In this document: positions 36,001 through 45,000 of the stretch, in pieces
How positions within the stretch are numbered: the stretch's first letter is position 1
How the letters are laid out: the number at the start of each line of letters is the position of its first letter
Assembly (NCBI GenBank): GCA_963663165.1
Contig: OY760175.1
Span: 1,216,001 to 1,280,000, forward strand
Reading direction: 5' to 3'
DNA from: an uncultured Desulfospira sp.
GTDB lineage: Bacteria > Desulfobacterota > Desulfobacteria > Desulfobacterales > Desulfobacteraceae
DNA length: 64,000 bases
Made by a program: the position numbers

Positions 36001-39000
36001 CACCAACAGCTTAGAGACCACGGATATCTTCAGGGGAGCGTTTTACCTTTGCATGGGAGGTGATCTGGCCGAGATCCGGATGAACCACCGGCAGATTGCA
36101 TCCTTTATGTTTGCAGGTCCGGACCTGGCCAAACATGACAAGGCCTATGTCAACGGCCATGCCCTGGTCAACCCCGTGCAGTTCAGGCAGGCGCTGAACC
36201 ACCTGCGGGATATCCTATTTACGAGATTGAGACAAGGAAGATACGAGAATGATAGAACAAGTAAGGATCGACACCATCAAAACCAGTGTGGACCTTGTGG
36301 CCTATATCGGACAGGCCACCGGAGCCGCATTTAAAAAGAACGGCAAGGGGTATGTATGCCGGTGCCCGTTCCCGGACCACGAAGACAAGACCCCGTCCTT
36401 TGTGGTTACTCCCCATGAGAACCTTTGGAACTGCTTTGGCTGCGGCAGGGGCGGTGATGTGTTTGAGTTTGACCGCCTGTATTTTAGCCTGGACTTCAAG
36501 GCATCGGTTCAAAAGCACGAATCCGTTGCCTCGTCCCCAAAGAAGGCAGTTAAAAAGAAAAAGGCCCCAGGCTCAGACAAGGCCCTGACCGTCAAAGAGC
36601 AAAAACTTCTGACCCGAGTGGTATCCTATTACCAGCACAGCTTTGGCGAAGATCCCAAGGGGATGGCCTATCTGAAAACCAGAGGGATCAGAGAAAATCA
36701 ATCGTTCTCGGATTTTGGTGCAGGCTTTGCCAACGGCACCCTGCTCAACATCCTTCCCGAAGATACCGACATTATCAACTCCTTAAAAAAGATCGGGATA
36801 TTGAACAGCCGGGGCAAAGAGGTGTTCATCAACTGCGTGGTGTTCCCGCTGTATGATGACAAGGGATCTGTGGTGAATCTCTATGGCCGGAACATTGACG
36901 ACGGCTGTAGGATCAAGCATTTGTATTTGCCAGGCAAACGCAACGGTCTTGTGAACCGCCAGGCGGCCAAACGGTCCCAGACTTTATACCATCAAAAACG
37001 CCCGGTATGAGCTAAGGGCGTTCATCACCTTTATGGCCAAAGAAACGCCCCCGACCCTGGACAACCTGACACGGGAGATCTTGTATGAGTACCAGCAGGA
37101 GCTGGCCTTCAGAGTCTCTTCCAGGGGTAAGCTGTTGAGCCTTCGAACCCAGGGGCAGCGCCTTGGGGTGATCAAATCTTTTACCCGGTATTTAAAGGAA
37201 CATGATTATATGATCCTGGATCCGGGGGATGCCATCAGGTTGCCAAAGACACCCAAGCGTCTGCCAAAGGTGATCCTGAACACTATGGAACTTAAAAAGA
37301 TCATGCAGGCGGCGGACATCCGGACAACCCGGGGTTACAGAAACCGGGTGATCCTGGAGATCCTCTATGATACAGCCATCCGACGATCGGAACTTGCCGG
37401 CATTAAGATCAATAACCTTGATCTGCACTCAGGCTTTATCCATGTTCACGGCAAAGGTGATAAAGATCGTGTGGTGCCGGTGAGTGACCGGGTCAGCCGC
37501 CTGATTGAAAATTATATCGTGATGGTACGTTCGGGATACATTCAGGGGAAGGACACCGGCCACCTGGTCCTGAACCGGTGGGGAGAACAAATGGATCCCA
37601 ACGCCATATGGGCGGTGGTCAAACGATGTGCAGACCTGGCCGGGATCAGAAAGAACGTCTCCACCCACACGTTCCGGCACACCTGTGCCACCCACATGCT
37701 TAAAAACGGTGCCCCGGTCCGGCATATCCAGGAGATGCTGGGCCATGAATCGTTGGAATCCACGCAAGTTTACACCCGGGTGACCATCAACGACCTAAAG
37801 GAGATCCACGCCAAATACCATCCGGGAGAGAAAAAAGGGAATACCTCCACGCATTGACATTGCCAGACTTATGGGTAAATATGGGTAAATTTATGGATAT
37901 TTAATAAGGATGGCCAATGTTGAATCCTAGGATAAAAATCACACCCGAAATCTACACCGGCCACCTGGTCCTGAACCGGTAGGGAGAACAAATGGATGAG
38001 AATGGTCACAGAAAATCATGGAAAAATTGAAGATAATTTGCAAGATATGTCAGGTTTGAGGCAGAAGTTCCCTTGTTTATCTCGCAAATAATCGTGAAAC
38101 TCCTGCCTCCCCACCCAATAACAGGGCAGGAGATATGCTATCAGAAGTTCTAAAAAGCGAAAGTCTTTTTTGGAATCTATACAAAATAGATCTGGCAACA
38201 GCCGAACGTTATAGACAGATGAAGTGCCCCCACTGCCAGGGACCGTTGTATTATGCCAATTATCTGCGCAAACCCAGGGGGGAGCCTGAAGGGTTGTCTG
38301 AAGAATGTTTTTTACAATTCAGTTTATGCTGCGGAAGGGAAGGCTGCCGACGGCGTTTGATCCCGCCAACCTGCCGTTTCCTTGGTAAAAACATTTACTG
38401 GTATGCGGCCATTCTGACGATTGTGTCCGACTGGCAGAACCAATCTGTAGGTATCACGATGTCCAGGTTTGCTGAAACAATCGGTATCTCCCGCAACACC
38501 CTTAGACGCTGGGTCGGTTTGTTTAAAGAAATATTTCCAACAAGCGCTCAATGGAAGAAAATCCGGGGCCGAGTGCCTGCAAGCGTGAAAAATGACAGTC
38601 TTCCGGCAAGTTTGGTCAACTTCTATCTGCATCAACAGGCATCCATCAAAGAAACGTTGATCTCCTGTTTGTCATTCTTGTCTCAAGGCAATGAAATATC
38701 ACAAAAAATAAGGGCCGGGTAATCTCACGCAGAAGATGGGCGTGGCCTTGGGCGATCAACTGTTCTATCAAAGGGGCCGGGATTTTTATCAGCATTCCGC
38801 TGAAAATTTTAACTTAAAATTGAAAGGACCCCGGCCTATGAACAGTAAAAACCAAAGTCCGGTTGATAAATGGGCTTTGTTTCGCTTCTCAGTCGTTGGT
38901 GGTTTGCTGGCAAATCCGCCGGCCAAGGGTGAGCTGCGTAAGGAACTGGAAAAGCTTTCCAATCAGATTTACACCCATCCCATCACGAACGAATCGACGG

Positions 39001-42000: not shown

Positions 42001-45000
42001 CACGAATGGAAATTTACAATCGCATTATCAATGAAAGGCAGGATTGGATTAATCATGCGGATGAACGAAAAAAAACACAGTATCTGATCAGGACATTACA
42101 AAAAGCTGAAAAAATTATCAGTTAAAATCGGGCTCTCTTGGCCTCCGGGAAAGCCCTTATTTACCATGAAACGTTGTCCATGAATTATCGTGATTGCTCT
42201 CAATGGATCCCAACGCCATATGGGCGGTGGTCAAACGATGTGCAGACCTGGCCGGGATCAGAAAGAACGTCTCCACCCACACGTTCCGGCACACCTGTGC
42301 CACCCACATGCTTAAAAACGGTGCCCCGGTCCGGCATATCCAGGAGATGCTGGGCCATGAATCGTTGGAATCCACGCAAGTTTACACCCGGGTGACCATC
42401 AACGACCTAAAGGAGATCCACGCCAAATACCATCCGGGAGAGAAAAAAGGGAACACCTCCACGCATTGACATTGCCAGACTTATGGGTAAATATGGGTAA
42501 ATTTATGGATATTTAAAAGGATGGCCAATGTTGAATCCTAGGATAAAAATCACACCCGAAATCTTAAACCTCATTGCCAAAATAGACGAGTTCAAAGGGG
42601 AATGGAAAGCCATCGGGAACCTGGCTCCTGATCGCCTCAATGCCCTTAAGCATGTGGCAACCATAGAATCCATAGGGTCTTCCACGCGGATCGAAGGGGT
42701 TAAACTGAGTGATCAGGAGATCGAGTTGCTGTTATCCGGCCTGGACAAAAAGTCTTTTGGCTCCAGGGATGAACAGGAGGTGGCCGGATATGCTGATGTA
42801 ATGAACACCGTGTTTGAATCCTACGGGCAGATCCCGTTTACTGAAAACTATATCAGGCAACTGCACAAGATGCTGCTCCAATACAGCTCAAAGGATACAC
42901 GGCACCGGGGGGAGTATAAAAAGATGACCAATCATGTGGAGGCGTTTGACCATGACGGGAAAAGCCTGGATGTCATCTTTGAAACATCCTCGCCCTTTGA
43001 TACACCCAGAGACATGGAAGAGCTGCTGGCATGGACCAGTAAGCAGTTAAAAGAAAAAGAGCTTCATCCCCTGTTAACCATATCTGTATTTATCGTTCAT
43101 TTTTTGGCCATCCACCCGTTCCAGGACGGCAACGGAAGGCTATCAAGAGTGCTGACAGCCCTGCTGCTGTTGAAAGAGGGATATCTGTACGTTCCCTACA
43201 GTTCCCTGGAAAGTGTGCTTGAAAAAAACAAGGACAACTATTACCTGGCCTTGAGACGGACCCAGGGTTCGTTTAAATCTGAAGAACCGGACTACACTCC
43301 CTGGCTTACCTTCTTCCTGGACGCCCTTGACGCACAAAAGGAAATGCTGGCCCGGAAGATCGAAAGGGAGAACGTTTTTACGAAACTGCCCAAGCTATCC
43401 CGGCAGATCATTGAACTGGTGAAGGATCATGGAGAGCTGTCCATATCAGAGATCGAATCCATCACAGGAGCCAACCGAAACACCATAAAGAAAAAGCTGG
43501 CAGAACTTGTGCGGGACAACCACCTGACCAGGCAGGGCCAGGGTAAAGGGACCCGGTATGTTCCTGGTATAAAATAGCGGATCGTCTCCGGTGCTCGGGC
43601 TCCACCCCTTAGGGGGTTCCGCTGCCTGCGCCCGGAGCCGGCCTTATTATATGCCCGCCCAACCACCCTTTAAATGCGGATGGCTGCGCCGCCTTATTTT
43701 ATATCCCCACCCGCCCGGCGAAAGTGCTGTTCCGGCGCTACGGGCACGCCGGTCGCTCCAACATTGCGTAAAGTCGTTACGTTCGGCGTGTCTGATAAGG
43801 CTGCCTTATCAGACACGGCCGGTCCGTCACAGGTCTTGCAAACTGCCGCAAGACCTGCGCCGGACCGCCTTCCCTCTCTCCACTACACATAACAAACATT
43901 ATGTCTACTTTACGCAATGTTCCGCTTCCTTTGCGCCCTTCGCTGCCTCCACAGCCCTTCCGCTCCCCCTTAAAAAAGGAAGAAGATCCATTTTATATGC
44001 CGGCTGCCGCCGGCAGGCTTCTGCGGTTAAAGAAAAAAAACAGGATAAGCTTGAATATCGGGAAGATATATCATACTACTTCAAATAGCTCTTTTACATG
44101 TTGGAGGCTTTACCAGGAGGGCATTGTGCCATAACCGGACGGTGGGATATCCTTTTCTTTAAAATACCCTCAAATTTGGGTGAAGGGCATTTGAAAGAAA
44201 AGAATATCTTGTGGAATGGGACGATTTAGGTATGGCCGGACAGCTCCGGCACAAAAAACAGCTCTCTAAGAGGGGGAGGTGCATCGCAATACTTCCGGGA
44301 CAATATTGGGATGGGGAGACGGGGCTGCATTATAATTTCCATCGGCATTACGATCCTCATACAGGACGATATCTCGCTGTTGATCCAATTGGCTTATTTG
44401 ACAATGGAGACTTGTTAATAAACCTATTTTTATTCAAAACGAATTCGAAAAAAACTACTTTAATTGGCAACCCTAACCATCAGTATTGTTATGTACGGAG
44501 CAATCCGATCAACATGTTTGATATGTATGGATTGGAGGAAATATTACCCAAAGATTGTAAAGAGGCAAAATGCATAGAAAACTGCGTAAGAGGATGTGGA
44601 GAAAAAGCTACTAAATGCATGATGGGTGCGGTATGGCCATACGGATTCCCAACATGTGAATTGGTATGTGTTGGCTTATCTCTTGGCAAAGGGATTCTGC
44701 CCTGCACTATAATGTGTGGAATATATACAGGTTACATTGTACTTGATTGCGCTTTGGAAGAACAAAGCTGTGTTCAAAGTTGTGAAACAGAATGTTCTGA
44801 CAAAAAACCCGCTACTTAATAATAAATATTATATTTGGAAGATATAAAAGAAAATGAAAAAATTAATTGTTCGGGTTTTAGGTGCATGTATTTGTTTATT
44901 GTGTGGAATTTATTTTAAAATATCGTTTGAAAGCGTAATAACGAAGTGGGAACATAATGTTCTGAATGTTTGGCCTATAACAACATGGTGTGTTTTTTTA

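Follow-up and report, generated by a model that had tools for sequence, protein, structure and literature searches.

The genome of an uncultured Desulfospira sp. contains a small DDE transposon that encodes a RepB'-type primase next to its transposition genes, which raises the question of what such an element does with a primase of its own. We analysed one copy in a window of 64,000 nucleotides (contig OY760175.1, positions 1,216,001 to 1,280,000). The genome-wide survey's note had proposed a Mu/Tn552-like element whose primase starts DNA synthesis at the strand-transfer forks of replicative transposition or, in parentheses, on an excised circle. Sequence comparison gives good support to a different description, a recently active Tn6049-family transposon that acquired a compact RepB'-type primase.

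The note's account of the element itself (4,206 bp, TGAGA...TCTCA ends, 11 copies) was borne out. Querying the 6.74-Mb single-contig genome with positions 37997-42202 of the window by blastn identified 11 places at 97.3-100% identity, nine of them full length, and the ends read TGAGAATGGTCACA...CGTGATTGCTCTCA in every one of the 11. The contig origin falls within one copy, and the copy at 4929062-4939243 is split by one insertion of 4,063 bp and another of about 1.9 kb. The five ORFs are uninterrupted in all nine intact copies, and the copy in the window is one of three identical 'alpha' copies (Table 1). The target duplications are less regular than the uniform 5 bp noted before: five copies have 5 bp, three have 6 bp, one has 4 bp and two have 3 bp. 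A second ATTTACCATGAAA-type site lies immediately internal to the right terminal repeat, and the same motif pair occurs in relatives.

Table 1. Features of the transposon, in window coordinates.
Feature	Position	Strand	Evidence
Whole transposon, 4,206 bp	37997..42202	+	blastn, ends and flanks read, copy comparison
Target duplication, left copy ATGGA	37992..37996	.	flanks read
Left imperfect terminal inverted repeat TGAGAATGGTCACAGAAAATCATGGA	37997..38022	+	sequence reading, repeat search, end-to-end comparison
Sub-terminal AATWATCGTGA-like sites, inverted pair, left end	about 38027-38047 and 38078-38098		
ORF1, 195 aa, cysteine-rich N-terminus and weak helix-turn-helix	38135..38722	+	homology to Tn6049 first gene
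DDE transposase, 481 aa from ATG 38838	38838..40283	+	rve Pfam 3e-13
AAA_22 (ExeA/GspA-like) ATPase, 275 aa	40280..41107	+	AAA_22 1e-16
Small acidic ORF, 60 aa	41117..41299	+	slot comparison with relatives
GC-rich hairpin GCCCGGAC-N7-GTCCGGGC, 3' of small ORF	41306..41328	+	
RepB'-type primase, 262 aa	41337..42125	+	Pfam, PDB phmmer, AlphaFold/Foldseek
Right imperfect terminal inverted repeat ...TCCATGAATTATCGTGATTGCTCTCA	42177..42202	+	sequence reading
Target duplication, right copy ATGGA	42203..42207	.	flanks read

Renewed gene and Pfam analysis reproduced the five-gene operon reported earlier. Its first three genes show collinearity with Tn6049 on pHS87a, ORF1 at 32.5% identity (E 3e-25), the transposase at 46.9% and the ATPase at 50.4%. 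Tn6049, described in PMC2864759 and PMC4739549, has the same gene order, in which a small protein of the Zn/HTH type is followed by a DDE transposase (about 480 aa), an AAA ATPase (about 275 aa) and a small ORF; PGAP names the transposase 'IS481 family' and the ATPase 'gspA'. As far as the available descriptions go, its inverted ends are likewise short, imperfect and of the TG..CA type, its duplication is short (4 bp on the P. aeruginosa plasmid pHS87a), and both elements are multi-copy, Tn6049 often lying within other mobile DNA. Tn6049 measures 3.5 kb and has no primase, whereas the window element measures 4.2 kb and has the primase ahead of its right end; their fourth small ORFs show no detectable similarity. 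A Tn6049-type core composed of ORF1, the rve DDE transposase, the AAA_22 target/assembly ATPase, the small ORF and the TG..CA ends is thus well supported. The Tn6049 family is little studied, and in the accessible parts of the literature searched we found no mechanistic study of it.

Within this core, Pfam searches of ORF1 gave only weak HTH matches, and a DNA-binding role as accessory protein or regulator is probable for ORF1. The Atlas points from ORF1 toward DUF6431 clusters, which we mention as a lead. An alternative upstream ATG at 38736 would extend the transposase to 515 aa, of which M35 is the start common to homologues. In this longer numbering, the catalytic triad is D222, D287 and E323, invariant in 20 of 20 sequences. 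The best NCBIfam models were IS481 (2e-30), IS3 (2e-20) and IS21 (1e-9), all under cut-off, and Mu-transpos_C was not matched in Pfam at E<=0.01. With this, the Tn6049-type core and duplications of 3-6 bp, the element is not clearly Mu/Tn552-like. The ATPase gene, which shares its first 4 nt with the end of the transposase gene, encodes Walker A (GDPGLGKS) and Walker B (LLIDEAQ) motifs. The 60-aa ORF matches no Pfam family; primase-less relatives also hold a small ORF in this slot, and it is part of the family core. The hairpin that follows keeps its stem in relatives despite differing sequences, and since primase-less elements also have the small ORF and then the hairpin, it is a core feature rather than a primase site.

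The primase matched RepB_primase (4e-15) and RepB_primase_C (1e-7), both above gathering scores, and its homology to RepB' of the IncQ plasmid RSF1010 (PDB 3H20 and 3H25) was recovered exactly as claimed (phmmer E=1e-11 over residues 25-158). Its AlphaFold model (pLDDT 85.4) had 3H20 as the top Foldseek match (E 9.7e-14), with 3H25 also matching best, and predicts the two-domain fold of RepB': a catalytic domain at about residues 1-165, a disordered tether at 176-188 and a helix bundle at 197-261. Despite an identity of only about 24-27% and a length of 262 aa versus 323 aa, equivalents of RepB' D77, D78, D134, R145 and R285 are kept. D66, D67, D123, R134 and Y39, which correspond to RepB' D77, D78, D134, R145 and W50 (roles in PMC8567376), are the same in all 88 homologues, and dN/dS between the two subfamilies of this genome is 0.27. 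Together with the open ORFs and the RepB'-like model, this suggests that the primase is functional. Unlike RepB', which belongs to a plasmid replicon, it is set in a transposon operon and lacks an adjoining RepA helicase, RepC initiator, iterons and recognisable ssiA/ssiB.

The primase gene is the last of the operon, lies on the same strand as the transposition genes and stops about 77 bp short of the right end. In many primase-bearing relatives, it follows the ATPase gene by only 2-6 nt. Same strand, last position and these short gaps point to co-expression with the transposition genes. The view that an intact, conserved and co-oriented primase lies within the ends of an active DDE transposon was therefore upheld. 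No cis element accompanies the gene: the upstream side offers only these short gaps in many relatives, downstream is each element's own right end, and a k-mer search across element types returned A/T-rich words only.

We found that the primase is optional. Tn6049 attained 12 copies in Cupriavidus metallidurans CH34 although it has no primase. Six genomes of the order sample contain related type A elements lacking it, and the core of one primase-less element (L128) is 80% identical to those of two primase-bearing ones (L078 and L080). Since Tn6049 and the six related genomic elements lack it, the family can dispense with the primase.

In other mobile elements, which measure 3.7-4.3 kb and use DDE, tyrosine or DEDD recombinases, members of the same primase clade (52-80% identical) likewise stand last in the operon. 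These carriers include a second rve and AAA_22 family, a third DDE and ATPase family, tyrosine-recombinase RIT trios and one IS110. RIT elements consist of three tandem tyrosine-recombinase genes that form one mobile unit, which the window element is not. The 80 primase loci from metagenomes comprised 31 of type A, 28 of type B, 10 RIT trios (among them L090, L100, L107, L113, L115 and L118), three of the third DDE family, one IS110, one RIT-like integrase and six too short to class. Element-type labels interleave in the primase tree, where the starred branches imply that A, B and RIT each changed at least four times. For three element types, copies that are identical but differ in their flanks just past the right end place the primase inside the mobile unit. 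In this genome, a third-family element and a RIT instead have a free-standing CHC2 zinc ribbon of the DnaG type (29.2 and 31.8 bits, against a gathering score of 24.9) in the slot where relatives have the RepB' primase; the two ribbons are 70% identical, and L139 is a RIT with such a ribbon. We found no paper that pairs recombinase-in-trio elements with a primase in the literature searched. Small mobile elements that use different recombinases have thus exchanged the primase repeatedly. Being optional and shared by unrelated recombinases, it is a promiscuous accessory module that is not specific to Mu-type forks.

This distribution bears directly on the earlier proposal that the primase starts the lagging strand at the two forks of a Shapiro intermediate, free of the host PriA-type primosome. 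An rve transposase with an AAA+ partner, TG..CA ends, several sub-terminal repeats, the retention of every donor copy (many of them identical), the 5-bp duplication of five of the 11 copies and a Mu-transpos_C domain in type B relatives, whose transposase is 27% identical, would fit such replicative transposition. However, the transposase of the window lacks that domain, the duplications vary, the five ORFs include no resolvase, sister elements have no primase, and RIT trios and IS110, which form no such forks, carry the same clade. A primase lacking a helicase would presumably not make a fork self-sufficient either. We consider this reading, as formulated, highly improbable. The excised circle fits better, as one relative (L055) was assembled as a circular contig of 4,299 bp with a 129-bp terminal overlap and no chromosomal flanks. 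Its ends abut across 4 bp (right end - TTTC - left end), and as single-stranded DNA the junction folds at -18.1 kcal/mol (z = -5.75). This was the only circular case among the 80 loci, with a second contig from the same sample, and the contig could alternatively represent a tandem dimer.

Autonomous, plasmid-like replication of such a circle, with the primase as its sole element-encoded initiator, has a precedent in ColE2-type Rep primases. The closed circle and the many homologues on element-length contigs agree with it, yet repeats in short-read assemblies also yield contigs of that length, circularity was rare, no clade members were found in PLSDB or IMG/VR, and neither iterons nor repeats resembling an origin were seen, all of which make it very doubtful. 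A role in horizontal transfer is somewhat less remote, although still unlikely: a primase of ancestral conjugation function would help to make double-stranded the single strand that enters by conjugation or transformation, and the element could then be expressed and jump before its vector is lost. Judged from gene neighbourhoods, the nearest relatives outside transposons are indeed in conjugation contexts. On a plasmid of Desulfosarcina ovata, a T4SS operon of the Dot/Icm type begins with a 482-aa homologue (44% identity), others adjoin a TrwB/TraG coupling protein (L038) or SSB (L037), P0243 is an ArdC-primase fusion, and all of these form the outgroup in the primase tree. Against this, neither a relaxase nor an oriT or transfer signal is present in the element, T4SS-linked forms have N-terminal extensions that the 262-aa form does not share, the gene is tied to the transposition operon rather than to a leading-region-type promoter, and none of 72,556 plasmid records contained a clade member above 44% identity. 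Moreover, an incoming single strand would yield no protein until its second strand is made. Of similarly low probability is a passenger without a role in transposition, which would confer another benefit on host or element (such as repriming at stalled forks or counter-defence) or simply be a selfish gene hitch-hiking at element ends. Its optional presence, its constant position at the element edge and its exchange among unrelated elements are as expected for passenger genes. Conversely, the invariant catalytic residues speak of strong and lasting selection, the gene is tightly coupled to recombinase or ATPase genes, and only the priming-related DnaG zinc ribbon, not assorted cargo, replaces it in its slot.

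We tentatively prefer, at somewhat less than an even chance, that the primase starts second-strand synthesis on intermediates of circle-forming transposition, whether these are single-stranded or forked. IS3, IS21 and IS110 are circle-forming, presumed copy-out-paste-in families (bioRxiv 10.1101/2023.06.07.543989). If the primase-bearing elements moved through similar copy-out-type intermediates, the transposase would join one element end to the other on a single strand only, and synthesis from the freed donor 3'-OH would restore the donor while displacing or exposing a single-stranded copy of the element. The co-expressed primase would then place a short primer on this strand for a polymerase to finish the double-stranded circle, which the transposase, assisted by the ATPase, would paste into a new site. 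RepB' itself primes with dNTPs on hairpin single-strand initiation signals (PMC8567376). The hairpin of the abutted inverted ends, available in every such element, could be a signal of this kind, which would account for a single primase clade working in unrelated elements. The common intermediate is an assumption, since copy-out is, to our knowledge, not known for RIT trios and IS110 elements often have no inverted ends. We infer the activity of the primase, its template and its effect on transposition alike. The copy number of Tn6049 and the primase-less sister elements speak against a need for the primase in this family, and the lack of a cis element moving with the gene counts against the mechanism as well.

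As the survey had suspected, we found no description of a DDE transposon with a dedicated primase in the literature searched. A functional parallel is IEE of E. coli O157, a PrimPol-helicase 'IS excision enhancer' whose archaeo-eukaryotic-type primase works jointly with the transposases of insertion sequences that form circles (copy-out-paste-in; bioRxiv 10.1101/2023.06.07.543989). As described in that source, IEE is helicase-fused, encoded outside insertion sequences and promotes element loss, whereas the primase studied here is encoded within the element and conserved together with it. Self-synthesising transposons such as casposons and Polintons (8-20 kb) also carry their own DNA-synthesis enzyme. 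The available descriptions give these a family B polymerase with Cas1 or a retroviral-type integrase, while elements of the window type have a primase only. That several jumping genes of unrelated kinds share this primase hints that they initiate copying on their own DNA during movement. A second TG..CA transposon listed in the survey's note was recovered as well, at 4,278 bp, with six identical copies and further copies at about 77% identity.

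The studied transposon, listed with the other features in the table below, is present at 11 places in the 6.74-Mb single-contig genome. A blastn search with the element returned copies of 97.3-100% identity, bearing out the 11 near-identical copies given in the genome-wide survey's note. Nine of the copies are full length, one runs across the contig origin, and the last is interrupted by two inserts, one of 4,063 bp and one of about 1.9 kb. Three groups can be told apart among the nine intact copies: three identical copies including that in the window, five identical copies, and a single hybrid. 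The five-copy and window groups differ at 112 positions. All five open reading frames (ORFs) are intact in each of the nine, and in the four larger genes the two groups differ with a dN/dS of 0.13-0.27. Identical copies, open reading frames and low dN/dS mean that the transposon was mobile very recently and that selection acts on its genes. The hybrid copy has 74 differences from one subfamily and 38 from the other, and dS between the subfamilies falls to 0.024 towards the 3' end, where the primase lies, versus 0.10-0.12 elsewhere, which suggests recombination between copies. At least four of the 11 insertions (c1, the window copy, and c4, c5 and c8) lie inside genes of other mobile elements: two are in an integrase and an ISAzo13-type transposase, and two in diverged copies of a second transposon, in its transposase and its ATPase. 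No target-site consensus was seen among the insertions.

Locations of the features discussed, in the window or in the genome (C1)
Feature	Location	Length	Remarks
Transposon (copy c1)	window 37997-42202	4,206 bp	ends TGAGAATGGTCACA...CGTGATTGCTCTCA; ATGGA flanking each side
GC-rich hairpin	window 41306-41328		
Copy c4	C1 1904028		
Copy c5	C1 2584991		
Hybrid copy c6	C1 3867756-3871961		
Copy c8	C1 5560455		
Second transposon (L046)	C1 982493-986770	4,278 bp	TG..CA ends
Recombinase-in-trio element (L139)	C1 4929282-4933344	4,063 bp	
Type B gene pair (L043)	C1 5653288-5655407		
First duplicated unit	window 37553-37953	~401 bp	
Second duplicated unit	window 37954-37996 plus 42203-42564		
Integrase gene	window 37033-37857		intact
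Fic gene	window 42528-43577		intact
DnaG-like ORF	window 36249-37010	253 aa	
IS-rich region	window 30755-35058		upstream of the transposon
ISAzo13-type transposase	window 33767-34393, 34372-35058		split in two ORFs

ORF1 (195 aa) has an N-terminus rich in cysteines and only weak helix-turn-helix matches. The transposase has an rve core (Pfam, 3e-13) and a DDE triad of D222, D287 and E323 that is invariant in 20 of 20 aligned homologues; the search with this protein found more than 7,000. Its best curated models are IS481 (2e-30), followed by IS3 and IS21, all of them under the cut-off (NCBIfam, 106 bits versus 224, 73 versus 160 and 38 versus 160, respectively). On these scores the transposase falls short of the curated IS481, IS3 and IS21 families. 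The partner ATPase of IS21 is of the IstB type (DnaC-like), and that of the window element matches AAA_22 (ExeA/GspA type) and not IstB_IS21. Beyond the ATPase gene come an acidic ORF of 60 aa and a GC-rich hairpin.

When plasmids were searched with the transposase (tblastn), the matches were to Cupriavidus metallidurans megaplasmids and the Pseudomonas aeruginosa plasmid pHS87a, at 46.9% identity over 96% of the length. The element annotated on pHS87a is Tn6049, with four co-oriented genes of 181, 479, 277 and 90 aa. ORF1, the transposase and the ATPase match the first three of these in the same order, at 32.5% (E 3e-25), 46.9% (E 2e-150) and 50.4% (E 2e-93) identity (BLASTP). The accessible text of PMC2864759 describes Tn6049 as 3.5 kb long and present in 12 copies in C. 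metallidurans CH34, all with a 'gspA' ATPase gene, and that of PMC4739549 gives the pHS87a element 12-bp imperfect TG..CA ends and a 4-bp direct repeat. These published ends and the repeat were located in one of our retrieved loci (L141), and the ends of the window element, TGAGA...TCTCA with duplications of 3-6 bp, fit the same pattern of short imperfect TG..CA ends and a short duplication. From the collinear core genes, the ends and the duplications, we assign the window element to the Tn6049 family. It differs from Tn6049, which has four core genes in 3.5 kb and lacks a primase, in having five genes in 4,206 bp, one of them for a primase. Tn6049, named yet barely studied, is now tied to a much larger set of environmental transposons.

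The last gene encodes a 262-aa primase of the RepB' type, the primase of the IncQ plasmid RSF1010. Both RepB_primase and RepB_primase_C score over their gathering thresholds (Pfam; 32.0 bits versus 26.1 for the latter), and we obtained the phmmer match to the RepB' structures 3H20 and 3H25 that the survey had reported (E 1e-11). An AlphaFold model (pLDDT 85.4) has a helix bundle at residues 197-261, and its best solved Foldseek matches are 3H20 (E 9.7e-14) and 3H25_A (E 4.3e-10), the latter with a target TM of 0.63 and an rmsd of 4.2 A over 175 columns. In the part of PMC8567376 available, RepB' residues D77, D78, D134 and R145 are experimentally needed, W50 acts in hairpin unwinding, and the C-terminal helix-bundle domain is needed for dinucleotide formation (D238, R285). 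The first five align to D66, D67, D123, R134 and Y39, invariant in 88 of 88 homologues, and the catalytic motifs are kept as previously claimed. In the C-terminal region, on a low-scoring alignment, R252 is kept in 82 of the 88, and residue 204 is D in 50 and N in 30. The window primase has kept the RepB' catalytic residues and, in the model, the fold; its putative activity is primer synthesis on single-stranded DNA with dNTPs. RepB' works with the RepA helicase and the RepC initiator on the ssiA/ssiB hairpins of an oriV, and no helicase or initiator was found in the five ORFs of the element (Pfam). Longer homologues were few, with four found and none fused to a transposase.

Within the Tn6049-type family, which we call type A, the primase is optional. 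Among 401 genomes of the same order, 18 have a match to the type A transposase and 13 to the primase. Among the retrieved loci, leaving out matches that end at contig ends, six genomes (G103, G328, G065, G155, G229 and G159) carry primase-less elements of about 3.5 kb that contain ORF1, transposase, ATPase, small ORF, hairpin and right end. Primase-bearing type A elements were found there in G000, G056, G037 and G233, those of G037 and G233 being degenerate. The primase-less element of G328 (L128) has 80% DNA identity to the primase-bearing loci L078 and L080 over the left end and three core genes. In the L078/L080 lineage, the primase stands in place of the small ORF and hairpin and starts 3 nt past the ATPase gene, whereas in the window lineage it was added downstream of both. 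These two modes of attachment argue that the primase was acquired at least twice within the family.

The primase has 563 homologues about as long as itself, and many of these are on contigs of 4-5 kb. Scanning metagenomes with 37 of the homologues aligned gave 296 relatives. The contexts of the best 80 were read from BLASTP comparisons with reference proteins and with the recombinase-in-trio (RIT) proteins of this genome, and from Pfam searches of 28 ORFs. Among these best 80 of 296, 31 loci were of type A and 28 of type B, a second family with an ORF of about 150 aa, an HTH_32+rve+Mu-transpos_C transposase 27% identical to that of type A in a full-length alignment, and an AAA_22 ATPase. RITs, with three tandem tyrosine recombinases either whole or cut by the contig end, accounted for ten loci and a third DDE+AAA_22 family for three. 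One locus each had an IS110-type transposase and a RIT-like integrase, and six were too short to class. On a 4,392-bp genomic contig (L040, genome G024), the primase is followed by a 326-aa ParB_N-like protein and an IS21-type IstA (rve + Mu-transpos_C_2), without IstB. The studied genome has a single type B pair, which is primase-less and consists of a 436-aa HTH_32+rve+Mu-transpos_C transposase and a 271-aa AAA_22 ATPase.

The primase of types A, B and RIT is located within the element, 50-160 nt short of its right end, and the flanks of identical elements differ past that end. The transposon-linked primases have 52-80% identity to the window primase. In a quick maximum-likelihood tree of 88 primase sequences, the 85 that are transposon-linked group together (SH-aLRT 89), and three primases from conjugation or plasmid contexts (46-47% identity) form a long-branch outgroup. 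Element-type labels interleave in this tree, where well-supported branches force at least four changes each for A, B and RIT. Being common to unrelated recombinases, the primase is unlikely to depend on one particular protein partner.

The third family is represented in this genome by the second TG..CA transposon (L046), which the survey's note had rightly recorded with an AAA_22 ATPase; it has six identical copies and others that are about 77% identical. Of its five products, one of 129 aa is a zinc protein and one of 134 aa has a CHC2 (DnaG-type) zinc ribbon (29.2 bits versus a gathering score of 24.9). The other three are 184, 582 and 220 aa long, the last being an AAA_22 ATPase. The 582-aa product, which has no Pfam match, is probably a DDE enzyme distantly related to the rve type. 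The Atlas clusters closest to it, a lead only, are rve/Mu-transpos_C families, and hhalign against the alignment of types A and B (E 2.6e-4, probability 42%) places D187, D256 and E300 on the triad. Metagenome relatives, with transposases 52-57% and ATPases 61-77% identical, carry a RepB' primase in place of the zinc-ribbon gene, placed directly before the 184-aa homologue in L059 and L060 and behind the ATPase in L096. L059 and L060 share 98% identity starting 42 nt before the primase; in the stretch that separates the primase from the presumed left end, one has an ORF1-like gene and a transposase fragment and the other a 229-aa unknown ORF.

The 4,063-bp insert in the broken window-element copy is a RIT trio (L139) with four near-identical copies, three at 100% and one at 99.98%. 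Upstream of its three tyrosine-recombinase genes are a 179-aa ORF and a 102-aa CHC2 ribbon (31.8 bits) with 70% identity to that of the second transposon. In this genome, a free primase zinc ribbon is present in two element types that bear RepB' primases elsewhere. From the ribbon's presence in the slots of the RepB' primase, we infer selection for priming as such. Together with the coupling of the primase to transposition genes and the different recombinases involved, this replacement points to priming, and not any particular recombinase, as the selected function.

A circular relative with a primase bears on the transposition pathway. The metagenome contig L055 is 4,428 bp long and its 129-bp terminal overlap closes a circle of 4,299 bp. 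At the junction, the right end ...GTCCGCGCTCA is followed by TTTC and then by the left end TGAGTGCGGAC..., which places the ends 4 bp apart, and L054 from the same sample has the same junction. A linear relative (L048), 87% identical, has flanks at both ends. L055 is what one would expect of a transposon circle, such as the intermediates of IS481 and IS3 elements with their abutted ends a few bp apart, or of a tandem dimer. When single-stranded, the junction is predicted to form a hairpin of 12 bp closed by a 4-nt loop (-18.1 kcal/mol, z = -5.75), as with any abutted inverted ends. The assembled contigs of four of eight public runs of this genome hold no joint of right end to left end, which is no evidence either way as contigs cannot show rare forms. 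Contig joints that skip 4211 or go back are explained by the duplicated integrase segment adjoining the element.

We tentatively favour, at somewhat less than even confidence, a model in which this Tn6049-family transposon moves by a circle-forming, copy-out-type pathway. The accessory primase, made together with the transposition proteins, would prime the complementary strand on a single-stranded or forked copy of the element, with the hairpin of abutted ends as candidate start signal. This model draws on the affinities of the transposase and on the primase gene being coupled to those for transposition; the variable length of the duplications, L055 and the zinc-ribbon swap also count for it. 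So do the circle formers listed in the accessible part of bioRxiv 10.1101/2023.06.07.543989, which include IS3, IS21 and IS110, and the preference of RepB' for hairpin single-strand initiation signals described in the available text of PMC8567376. Counted against it are that primase-less relatives thrive, Tn6049 with its 12 copies among them, that L055 is one circular contig only, that RIT elements are not known to use copy-out and that our searches found no cis signal. No start signal was found to travel with the gene: what lies downstream is the right end of the respective element, and in many relatives the gap on the upstream side measures 2-6 nt. The search for a shared motif (11-mers with one mismatch, 25 elements of four types) gave A/T-rich words only. 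For promoters at the junction or left end, the sigma-70 consensus scan found nothing at the L055 junction and no more sites in the window element than in shuffles. The GC-rich hairpin was dismissed as an initiation site; it also follows the small ORF in primase-less elements, so it belongs to the family core and does not serve the primase.

The survey's note had proposed that the primase starts synthesis at the strand-transfer forks of a Mu/Tn552-like element. A RepB'-type primase does lie inside this DDE transposon, whose transposase has an rve core, but priming at Mu-type forks is in our view very unlikely. Elements of the Mu, Tn552 and Tn7-Tn5053 type make target duplications of fixed length (5 bp; 6-7 bp in Tn552), whereas those of the window element vary. 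The fixed 5 bp that the note had described occurs in five of the 11 copies, with 6 bp in three, 4 bp in one and 3 bp in two. Of 20 metagenome loci scanned, both ends were found in 14 and matching flanks in three of these, with duplications of 4, 5 and 6 bp; the loci with non-matching flanks are probably chimeric assemblies of a repeat. Their transposases combine an rve core with a Mu-transposase C-terminal domain; Pfam gives no match to Mu-transpos_C at E<=0.01 in the window transposase, though the homologous type B transposases have that domain. Tn552 and Tn5053 have a resolvase and a res site, and Tn7 a TnsA-type second nuclease; neither a resolvase nor a TnsA-type nuclease domain was found in the element's five ORFs (Pfam, NCBIfam). 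Autonomous replication of the circle, which the closed form of L055 would fit, is similarly improbable.

Two further explanations appear less remote and are still unlikely. One is that the primase has a role in establishment after transfer, inherited from conjugation. Its best plasmid match (44% identity) is a 482-aa protein heading a Dot/Icm-type transfer operon on a Desulfosarcina ovata plasmid, and other distant homologues adjoin a TrwB/TraG coupling protein, an SSB, or a DUF5906 protein and an HNH nuclease. P0243 (636 aa) is a natural fusion of ArdC domains, which have antirestriction and single-strand binding functions, and a RepB-type primase that shares 48% identity with the window primase. 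The IMG/VR virus collection gave one 24-residue match only. As to its origin, the clade seems, from these transfer-linked neighbours, to derive from primases acting on transferred single-stranded DNA. The other is that the primase is a passenger unrelated to transposition: primase-less sisters and the exchange of the primase among unrelated elements fit it, and the invariant catalytic residues, the coupling to transposition genes and the replacement by a zinc ribbon speak against it.

The favoured model of primed copy-out transposition can be extended to a broader reading that is, taken as a whole, doubtful. Priming modules, whether RepB' primase or free DnaG zinc ribbon, would be interchangeable cassettes circulating among the mechanistically unrelated Tn6049-type, two other DDE+ATPase, RIT and IS110 elements. 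The free ribbon could redirect the host primase, and all such elements would pass via a circular or forked single-stranded copy needing a primed complementary strand, with priming at the abutted-end hairpin. If true, this would define a class of self-priming transposons and bring to light a single-strand step in copy-out-paste-in transposition that has gone unseen so far.

The DNA copying of circle-forming transposons is largely inferred, and host factors are assumed. A conserved primase inside transposons offers a direct genetic and biochemical handle on this step. With five genes in 4.2 kb, and with sister elements that naturally have or lack the primase and are 80% identical in the core, the system is compact and therefore well suited to experiments; making the replication step of circle-type pathways testable would be of high interest to transposition specialists. 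No published primase-carrying transposon of this kind was found in full-text searches, whose reach excluded about 1.7 million PubMed Central articles, most subscription journals, ISfinder and TnCentral. In the portions of the literature available, the closest known items include the self-synthesising casposons and IEE PrimPol, an enzyme that the IS does not itself encode and that promotes IS excision.

The window insertion lies in an apparent tandem duplication whose unit covers the 3' part of the integrase gene, a spacer and the first 33 nt of the Fic gene. The transposon is inserted 43 bp into the second unit, and an intact integrase and an intact Fic gene remain. Short-read contigs break at the duplication junction, and an assembly origin is possible. 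The 253-aa ORF upstream has the zinc ribbon of DnaG and the N-terminal portion of its catalytic core, without a Toprim match. It lies directly upstream of a 274-aa tyrosine recombinase and is another primase-like gene adjoining a recombinase. The IS-rich region contains a Mutator-like transposase (584 aa) and the split ISAzo13-type transposase.
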